A DNA stretch of 64,000 bases from Ruminococcaceae bacterium UBA3753 (GTDB lineage Bacteria > Bacillota > Clostridia > Oscillospirales > Acutalibacteraceae): positions 62,394 to 126,393 of the forward strand of contig DFGJ01000021.1 in assembly GCA_002372375.1 (NCBI GenBank), written 5' to 3'. The position numbers and the translations under genes are program-made. Position 1 is the first letter of the stretch. The number at the start of each line of letters is the position of its first letter. Below the pieces are notes generated by a model that saw only the letters and a list, made by a program, of their open reading frames with translations, searched no databases and was not told where the DNA came from. This document shows, piece by piece, positions 6,627 to 7,982 of the stretch.

Positions 6627-6953
6627 CTAATTAACAATCACACCGTATATCAAGGTGATGGCTCCAAATATCTACATTAAATCCCTGGACTTTGGGACTT
6701 CTTGCCTTCCTTGATTATTTACATTTTGTTACTTAGGACTTTGCTCTTGCACCTCACTGTCCTTCCTAGTTTCAAGGAGGAAAGAATACTTTAGATATAT
6801 CGTTTTATTTGTTTAGCAAATTTAAAAGTCTTGCAGTTTACTTGAAAAATCAGGAAAAACACCTTGCATTTTTGTTGCGAAGAAAGTTATAAAGCTTGCT
6901 TGTACTCATAAAAAATATGATAGATCGGATCTTTTGTTTTTAAATTGAGTTAG

Positions 6954-6979
6954 AAAAAAGAGCGGACGAGTGCCCGCCC
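6954..6979 (-). terminator. rho-independent terminator
   Basis: On the minus strand: GGGCGGGC-ACUC-GUCCGCUC, an 8-bp stem with two G-U pairs and a 4-nt loop, followed by UUUUUU. It begins 9 nt after the TAG stop at 6988..6990. Confidence 0.7.
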
Positions 6980-6987
6980 TTTTACAA

Positions 6988-7191
6988 CTACTTTTTCTTT
7001 TTTTTAATAAATTGTGCCTCCTTGAGACCTATCTGGAGTCCTTGCTCCAGACCAAGTCGATAAAATTTATTCTTAGCTCTGTGATAAATACCGTCAGTCA
7101 TCATAGCTTCAGACTCATTAAGTCCCCCTGCTATCTCATCCCCTGAATCATCATCATAAACTTTCCAGGTGCCATCCCCCATTTGCACCAT
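6988..7191 (-). CDS. small acidic/basic protein (67 codons); possibly the downstream part of a frameshifted gene
   Basis: An open frame that ends immediately before a good terminator. Its own ATG sits inside a G5A4 run with poor RBS spacing. See the finding on 6988-7247. Confidence 0.45.
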   Translation of the reverse strand: MVQMGDGTWKVYDDDSGDEIAGGLNESEAMMTDGIYHRAKNKFYRLGLEQGLQIGLKEAQFIKKKKK

Positions 7192-7247
7192 TTTCCCCCG
7201 ACAGCATTACTTAAATCAGCTTCTGATATGCTATTAGTTAACACCAT
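7131..7247 (-). CDS. 38-codon ORF with a double-glycine-type leader (MVLTNSISEADLSNAVGG / KWCKWGMAPGKFMMMIQGMR)
   Basis: A GAGGTG RBS lies 7 nt upstream of the ATG at 7247. The leader-like ...EADLSNAVGG resembles the LSxxELxxIxGG class of leaders. The ORF overlaps the 67-codon ORF in the -1 frame. Confidence 0.3.
   Translation of the reverse strand: MVLTNSISEADLSNAVGGKWCKWGMAPGKFMMMIQGMR
7191..7197 (-). promoter_or_regulatory. candidate -1 ribosomal frameshift heptamer G_GGA_AAA
   Basis: In the leader frame the codons are GGG GGA AAA TGG, which fits the X_XXY_YYZ pattern. A -1 slip lands exactly on the ATG GTG CAA... frame of ORF 6988..7191. A GGUGC/GCACC hairpin follows, but only 1 nt downstream, which is shorter than usual. 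Confidence 0.25.
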
Positions 7248-7601
7248 AACCACACACCTCAAAAAATAATTTTCTTCAGTCTTAGACTTAAGATGTTTAA
7301 ATTGCAAATTATTTCAAGTAAAATGTTAATACTTTTATTTTTAAAAAACAAAATCATAAAAAGTCCCATACTTTAACTATTTAGCTAGCAAATAATACTT
7401 ATATGTCATTAACAATCATCCTGTATCTTTATTAAAATAAAAATTGTAGTTTTTAAAATAAATACTAAATAAATATGTCTAACTTGATATTTTAAGGCCT
7501 TACAAAAAATTAAAGACAGAAATTTTCATCATACTGTTGTACAAATTTTAAATTAGAAATTAGCACAACTTTTATTTGTGAATTGGCGAATTTTTAATTT
7601 T

Positions 7602-7982
7602 TTAAAGTATATTTTCTAAGTAAGGCTCCTCCGTTTCTTCTAAACCTTTTATTCTAACCAGAATACTTTTACAAATAGCCAGACTTTGTGAAAATTCGTT
7701 GCTCGCCAAATTGGACTTGAGTTCAGCAAAACTTACATCTATTTCTTCTAAATGACTGTGATCTATAAACCATTTTAATATTTTTTCACTTTTTTCCCAC
7801 TTATTATTGGCAGTATTTATTTCTCTATAGGCAAAGTCTGTTTTTTCTTCAGCTAAAAATTCTAATGCAGAGTCCAAATTTTTTGTAATTTCACTAGTTG
7901 TGTTTTTTAAAAAGAATAAGCTTAGAATACACAAAAAAACAGTAACAGTGAAAATAACCACGGCACATACTGTACGGAACAA
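7602..7982 (-). CDS. DUF4363-like small membrane-anchored protein
   Basis: 126 aa with an N-terminal TM helix and then a helical domain. It lies immediately downstream of a DUF421 gene, a pairing I recall as common in Clostridia. Confidence 0.55.
   Translation of the reverse strand: MFRTVCAVVIFTVTVFLCILSLFFLKNTTSEITKNLDSALEFLAEEKTDFAYREINTANNKWEKSEKILKWFIDHSHLEEIDVSFAELKSNLASNEFSQSLAICKSILVRIKGLEETEEPYLENIL

Follow-up and report, generated by a model that had tools for sequence, protein, structure and literature searches.

Two overlapping open reading frames (ORFs), offset by one base, lie on the minus strand between positions 6988 and 7247 of the window, by which we mean the whole 64,000-nucleotide stretch of DNA that was analysed. 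The first is a 38-codon ORF (7131..7247) with the 38-aa product MVLTNSISEADLSNAVGGKWCKWGMAPGKFMMMIQGMR, and its start codon, ATG 7247, is preceded at a spacer of 7 nt by a Shine-Dalgarno-like GAGGTG (7255..7260), as read from the sequence. Its 18 initial codons (7194..7247) specify a putative double-glycine leader, MVLTNSISEADLSNAVGG, and are followed by a 20-residue out-of-frame tail, KWCKWGMAPGKFMMMIQGMR. At the junction of leader and tail there is a G5A4 run (7191..7199; G5 at 7199-7195 and A4 at 7194-7191) that is read as the codons GGG GGA AAA, and inside this run is the heptamer G_GGA_AAA (7197-7191), which has the form X_XXY_YYZ in the zero frame. The second is a 67-codon ORF (6988..7191), which overlaps the first in the -1 frame, starts with ATG 7191 and encodes the core (cargo) domain of the protein family described below; it includes a hypervariable tract at 7007..7116. 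Beyond its stop codon lies an intrinsic terminator (6953..6983) with a GC-rich stem, a 4-nt loop and a T run, the hairpin of which folds at -18.4 kcal/mol (z = -5.5; 0 of 200 shuffled sequences equalled it), and a terminator scan concurs. An earlier note on this DNA had drawn the same picture from the letters alone, and it holds throughout: rereading of the minus strand returns the GAGGTG, its 7-nt spacer, the ATG and the 38-aa ORF, the ORF listing confirms the slippery codons at 7199-7191 and the 67-codon ORF in the -1 frame, the spacing of ATG 7191 from a ribosome binding sequence is indeed poor (GGGGG is only 3 nt away), and the terminator is as strong as was claimed.

The genes flanking the locus encode a DUF4363 protein, YetF and a sporulation-type sigma factor, and no membrane-protein gene adjoins the split gene. 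A promoter scan picked up no promoter on its strand; an intact paralogue elsewhere in the genome, at C7, has the promoter TTGACT-17-TGnTAGAAT with a strong extended -10. The Rfam model L20_leader matches 6948-7080 on the minus strand with 30.8 bits against a gathering threshold of 58.7 (E = 2e-4 to 7e-4). This match is below threshold and is probably spurious, its score being carried mostly by the terminator and an A-rich spacer.

The leader has the features expected of a substrate for a peptidase-containing ABC exporter (PCAT). The consensus for such leaders is L(-12)xxxE(-8)L(-7)xxxxG(-2)G(-1) (PMC6959990), and the predicted leader, I(-12)SEAD(-8)L(-7)SNAVG(-2)G(-1), agrees with it, with conservative substitutions at -12 and -8; the leader also aligns with the leader columns of the family, and the earlier identification of a double-glycine leader is correct. 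The 67-codon ORF contains the core motifs WKVYDDDSG (xVxDNDTG in the family) and YHRAK (YHxGK in the family), together with G-x3-G-x3-G on a long helix, and residues D13, A29, Y36 and H37 of the core are conserved in the family.

On the sequence evidence the 38-codon and 67-codon ORFs belong together as the halves of a single gene, the product of which is a small, presumably exported protein of an undescribed family. A family HMM was built without the target gene and used to score the -1 fusion, the core and the leader. The fusion scores 59.6 bits and aligns without a gap from leader to core (hmm positions 6-80 to residues 5-79), which argues that the two ORFs form one gene and that their pairing is not due to chance; taken separately, the 67-aa core scores 41.7 bits and the leader 8.5 bits. 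Fusion at the next G5 run gives 54.6 bits, 5 bits below the fusion at G5A4, so that the shift site proposed in the earlier note is the right one, with the correction that the -1 product has 86 aa (19 + 67) and not the 85 aa stated there. Nothing corresponding to the tail KWCKWGMAPGKFMMMIQGMR is present in the other members of the family.

When 1.84 billion representative proteins were searched with a paralogue profile at E <= 0.001, 25 clusters matched. The 19 sequences retrieved that are at most 121 aa in length carry leader and core in one frame, apart from a few that were gene-called without the leader, and five other matches are partial and lie within long proteins of 587-2081 aa. The comparison with relatives that had been proposed as a check on the locus therefore finds the two frames fused into one in the other family members. 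The family consists of rare, unannotated proteins of 65-121 aa with a double-glycine leader (consensus MAxxKNxSLSDKxLxxAxGG) and a core that includes the DNDTG and YHxGK motifs (consensus xVxx..DGxWxVxDNDTGxxV....A...D..YHxGKxxG...G...G). Neither the fused product nor either ORF nor the paralogues had a significant match in Pfam, NCBIfam or PHROGs; the kind of gene, a PCAT cargo with a double-glycine leader, is already known, and the family itself is unannotated. A search of 400 other genomes of the order did not find it, one of 200 genomes belonging to the taxonomic family gave a single weak match, and a JGI metagenome scan came back without a relative; the family is expanded to about 10 copies in the one rumen lineage studied here.

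An AlphaFold2 model of the 67-aa ORF, made with the family alignment, has a pLDDT of 87 and predicts strands at residues 2-4, 9-12 and 19-24 followed by a helix at 26-66. The first of these strands (VQM) begins immediately past the shift site, and from this and the HMM alignment together we conclude that one base is missing between the glycine codons and this strand, the G5A4 run itself being the most probable place. A Foldseek search of the core model against the PDB and BFVD gave no match at E <= 0.001, and a PDB sequence search with the family profile found no PCAT substrate chain and no significant match. Colicin S4 (PDB 3few) has a duplicated domain, both copies of which resemble the family core weakly and without significance (E = 0.1), in the pattern DG.Y.V..ND.G....A..........H.

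The break is shared well beyond the assembly from which the window was taken. The junction GTCGGGGGAAAATGG is identical in six assemblies, which represent four strains and two core alleles and were deposited under several different sample accessions; by their record names they appear to derive from sheep and cattle rumen metagenomes. Two of the six match the window at 100% identity across 3-6 kb and are therefore the same strain assembled by others, and three further assemblies are distinct strains, 96.5-98.6% identical to the window. In all six, leader and cargo are not in one polypeptide frame, being offset by one base at 7191-7199. In addition, 5.8 billion protein clusters contain no in-frame 86-aa form, a query with the fused sequence finding only core products of 64 and 67 aa. 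With the junction shared by six assemblies and the in-frame form absent from those clusters, an assembly artefact is very unlikely. An intact gene with a double-glycine leader at C46:95240-95512 has GAT GGG GGA AAA ACT (G5A5) at its cleavage junction, and probably shows what the unbroken run looked like here.

The genome itself (1.44 Mb in 48 contigs, 34.5% GC, 93% complete) is well supplied with both exporters and leaders. The earlier note saw no C39-peptidase exporter nearby, which is true of this contig and does not extend to the genome: there are two full-length C39-ABC exporters, at C24:15451-17640 and C46:87671-89839, neither of which adjoins the split gene. They are 722 and 729 aa long, score 120 and 114 bits against Peptidase_C39 (PF03412), both over the cut-off, and each has the cysteine context ALECGAASL and Walker A motifs. 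The C46 exporter is accompanied by an HlyD-like gene and a second ABC gene, and several Nif11-type leader peptides lie beside one of the exporters. In paralogues from the same genome a leader of this type and a core of this kind share one frame, the clearest intact copy being C7:35234-35530, MSLQSRRGLSSERLGDIAGG-KVVYDDHWKEWEVRDNDDD...YHTGK... More generally, over 20 small ORFs with double-glycine leaders are scattered over the genome, and in another rumen organism an intact member of the family also stands alone among housekeeping genes; an orphan position is therefore normal for the family.

Several further features of these ORFs may be recorded. Examples of ORFs with double-glycine leaders are found at C5:4648-4899, C18:19349-19636, C22:37389-37697, C24:13904-14722, C29:19313-25036, C37:28778-29077, C38:19635-19946, C42:26326-26670 and C46:92557-96250, a PCAT 'secretome' that is unusually large for a genome this small. 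At C12:41400-44330 five or six family paralogues lie beside a phage terminase large-subunit gene (C12:39219-40481), and about 420 bp are duplicated in tandem. An ORF in this array (C12, 41780-42298) encodes leader-like GG motifs and core-like domains, two of each and all in one frame, and a protein from another metagenome (P0005) has the same double-GG layout.

The two core alleles differ in an uneven way. The window and the other allele (L009-type) differ at 29 of 2068 positions, and 15 of the differences are concentrated within 7007-7116. This 110-nt tract has a divergence of 13.6%, about 10-fold above that of its flanks (about 1%), and its changes comprise 13 non-synonymous and 2 synonymous ones. 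The 12 amino-acid replacements avoid all of the family-conserved columns A29, D33, Y36, H37, K40, G47, G51 and G55 (permutation p = 0.001), which argues that the alleles diverged under protein-level constraint. For the divergence of the tract the best explanation is either diversifying selection or recombination with a diverged allele, and neutral decay in place does not account for it. Should the tract have been imported, the constraint could be older than the frameshift or could have operated elsewhere, and would then have no bearing on present function. In the other allele the terminator carries two one-sided changes, each of which preserves its pair. Over 7117-7738 there are about 570-620 nt without any difference among the four strains; this invariant stretch runs from the 3' end of the DUF4363 gene through 350 nt of intergenic spacer into the 5' half of the split gene, and it abuts the divergent tract. 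The juxtaposition of the two suggests a recombination mosaic or a sweep.

Three specific sources for the clustered substitutions were considered and set aside. The first is gene conversion from the C12 pseudogene copy, which agrees with the window allele at 9 of 17 differing sites, with the other allele at 4 and with neither at 4; taken as an outgroup, it indicates that both lineages have changed, and simple conversion from C12 is therefore not the answer. The second is a diversity-generating retroelement, and here the changes are not adenine-specific. The third is conservation of an RNA structure, of which 1 of 56 predicted pairs is changed on both sides and several are broken.

We consider the best explanation, at a probability of roughly 0.55, to be a fixed frameshift that uncoupled the leader from its cargo and left a pseudogene, with at most trace rescue by spontaneous slippage. 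The ancestral gene would have encoded a single 86-aa precursor with an 18-residue double-glycine leader, to be recognised and then cut after the two glycines by a PCAT, and about 68 residues of cargo following the leader, modelled as a three-stranded sheet and a long Gly-x3-Gly helix. The homopolymer encoding Gly-Gly-Lys would have lost one base, from G5A5 or G6A4 to G5A4, and the lesion would have become fixed in all sampled strains of this rumen species. Ribosomes starting at ATG 7247 would now make the leader and 20 out-of-frame residues before they stop, and the cargo frame would be left without an export signal and with poor start signals of its own. Rare spontaneous -1 slippage on G_GGA_AAA may still give traces of the full precursor, since the lesion falls on a shift-permissive heptamer. 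The direction of the mutation, the loss of function and the export by PCATs are steps that we infer. A lesion on a 'slippery' site is to be expected under plain mutation, because one-base indels arise in homopolymer runs, and the heptamer at the lesion would in this explanation be a side-effect of where indels arise and not a designed signal. An indel in the G5A4 run was among the three possibilities listed in the earlier note, where it was allowed to be either a true mutation or a sequencing error; as a true mutation it is the best supported of the three, and as an error it fails, since six assemblies share the junction.

There are several indications that decay of this kind is common in the genome and in this subfamily. 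First, the paralogue at C47:9225-9448 has suffered an independent 1-nt loss at a non-slippery site, being split as LYDIID/YDDGSIV in comparison with an intact homologue found elsewhere (P0007, 85 aa), LYSIIDDDDGSVV. Second, three paralogues on C12 carry other lesions: TAA and a 3' frameshift in C12:43889-44329, TGA within the leader at C12:42424, and ACG in place of ATG at C12:43519. The TGA raised the question of an alternative code, and the neighbouring genes, dnaX and both PCATs are long open frames under table 11. Third, the genome is gene-poor, with ORFs of at least 100 aa covering only 64% of it. Against loss of function stand a number of points. Both alleles have an open 67-codon core frame and retain the terminator stem; four strains all carry the break as a fixed feature; the lesion coincides exactly with a shift-permissive heptamer, and the spacing in the -1 product is precisely that of the family; and the approximately 10-fold faster divergence of the tract is not explained by simple neutral decay. 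The protein-level constraint between the alleles points the same way, in that the core is still used if they diverged after the frameshift.

The foremost alternative, though an unlikely one, is that the core is translated alone from ATG 7191, GTG 7188 or ATG 7182 behind the SD-like GGGGG, yielding a leaderless protein of 64-67 aa that would be intracellular or otherwise exported, with the leader ORF as a relic. The constraint between the alleles and the retained terminator would fit such a product, public gene calls annotate products of 64 and 67 aa, and the internal ATG 7191 nearly coincides with the mature N-terminus, from which it lacks just Lys1. The GGGGG may pair with the anti-SD sequence at a distance of 6 nt from GTG 7188, but at 3 nt it lies too close to ATG 7191, and its distance from ATG 7182, 12 nt, is long. 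Moreover, the Met codon is ancestral in the family (GGKMV, GGRMV, GGMVV) and did not, therefore, evolve as a start, ribosomes translating the 38-codon ORF would occlude an internal start, and a cargo built for export has no known cytoplasmic role.

Selected -1 frameshifting, whether programmed or of the 'saviour' type, we also judge to be improbable and place after translation of the core alone. Most ribosomes would then produce the 38-aa peptide, and a set fraction would slip, the tRNA-Gly re-pairing from GGA to GGG and the tRNA-Lys from AAA to AAA, to yield an exportable 86-aa precursor and so to dose secretion. Much at the locus agrees with this: G_GGA_AAA is a canonical X_XXY_YYZ in the correct zero frame, the -1 product matches the family without gaps, the core frame is open with its conserved residues kept, and the layout is a fixed one, shared by all four strains and both alleles. 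Phage lambda G/GT likewise uses G_GGA_AAG without an RNA structure. In E. coli, G_GG.A_AA.G is among the best heptamers, and heptamers without stimulators shift at 2-10 times a background of about 0.05%, i.e. about 0.1-0.5% (PMC4066793). However, there is neither a stimulatory structure nor an upstream SD element at the locus. The 61 nt downstream fold with z = -0.23, and the only hairpin there has 5 bp and begins 1 nt past the heptamer, a stimulatory structure being expected at 5-9 nt; no SD-like element is present in the sequence 10-14 nt upstream.

The comparative evidence is also against selected frameshifting. The two-frame layout is not conserved among diverged homologues, no other family member being split and all being single ORFs, and the sister copies are broken at non-slippery sites. 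Conservation of the layout is confined to one species, whose strains are about 99% identical, and the junction lies in a region that shows no variation among them and hence its conservation carries no information. The heptamer follows automatically from Gly-Gly-Lys coding combined with homopolymer indels; it occurs in frame in 76 long ORFs of the genome, and C46:95240-95512 also has it at its GG-K junction, where the -1 frame closes after 7 codons. Of programmed frameshifting as the earlier note presented it, the heptamer was the sole point in favour, and as a by-product of Gly-Gly-Lys, with no stimulator and with a species-limited layout, it supports that proposal poorly. It is still less likely, in our estimation, that selection has kept the one-base offset as such, with a heptamer at the leader/cargo boundary setting the coupling of the two, either as a dosing switch for a PCAT-secreted protein or so that one leader serves two exported products.

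We doubt strongly that the 38-aa ORF is a functional gene in its own right, cleavage after GG releasing a new 20-residue cationic, Trp/Met-rich exported peptide, KWCKWGMAPGKFMMMIQGMR. Its RBS and ATG are good, its leader is complete, and its sequence is identical in all strains; PCATs do not bind cargo specifically (PMC6959990), and such a peptide could therefore be exported. The identity among strains, however, reflects zero nucleotide variation over about 600 nt and not selection on this frame, and 20 codons to a stop is ordinary for an off-frame reading at 34.5% GC. The tail is the conserved domain, specifically the first strands of the core, read out of frame and without a homologue, which leaves the Trp-rich cationic peptide suggested earlier unsupported as a product of its own. 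Least probable of all is that the homopolymer was misread or misassembled and that the true gene is in frame, for while such runs are classic error sites, the same G5A4 is present in six assemblies of four strains made by pipelines that differ, to judge by the style of their record names (k87, k127, scaffold, Logan), and the protein collection is without any in-frame version.

Regarded as a frameshift, then, the finding is an ordinary one, a homopolymer indel in a decaying, gene-poor genome, and its practical lesson is that recoding should not be deduced from a 'slippery heptamer' at a Gly-Gly-Lys junction alone. It also exposes a rare and unannotated family of small proteins with double-glycine leaders, the predicted fold of which is confident (pLDDT 87) and is unmatched in the PDB or in viral structure sets. 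The presence of two PCATs and more than 20 leader-bearing ORFs suggests that bacteria of this kind have a major and unexplored route of secretion, in which PCATs export small folded proteins like CtA.

The closest comparison is with CtA, the substrate of PCAT1 in Clostridium (Acetivibrio) thermocellum (PMC6959990). CtA, like the protein encoded here, is small and clostridial, and each has a double-glycine leader (24 aa in CtA and 18 aa here) that is hydrophobic at -12 and -7 and acidic at -8, and the cargo in CtA, at about 66 residues, is likewise far larger than a typical bacteriocin peptide. CtA is exported by a C39-ABC transporter that is blind to its cargo, and the same route probably applied here. 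In contrast, CtA is encoded with its exporter and the split gene is an orphan far from both PCATs, no similarity between the cargo sequences was found in the PDB search with the family profile, and only here are leader and cargo in different frames. The precursors of class II (unmodified) bacteriocins and pheromones (ComC, BlpC, lactococcin G-type) share the leader consensus and presumably the processing and export route, and the G-x3-G motifs on the helix recall the two-peptide bacteriocins. They differ in that their cargo is a short hydrophobic peptide, where the model here predicts a charged, soluble-looking sheet-plus-helix domain, and in that no immunity gene, regulator or known activity is associated with the present locus.

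Programmed -1 sites (dnaX A_AAA_AAG, lambda G/GT G_GGA_AAG and those of IS3/IS911) resemble the junction in having X_XXY_YYZ in the zero frame and a -1 frame that enters a meaningful domain. The junction departs from them in the lack of a stimulator, in a layout restricted to one species with single-frame relatives, and in a heptamer that Gly-Gly-Lys coding explains. A last parallel is offered by 'problem or saviour indels' that are corrected by low-level frameshifting, a concept reviewed in PMC5009743. As in those cases, an indel in a shift-prone run could permit traces of the full-length product through unprogrammed slippage, with the difference that at this locus such leakage, and any importance it might have, is hypothetical.
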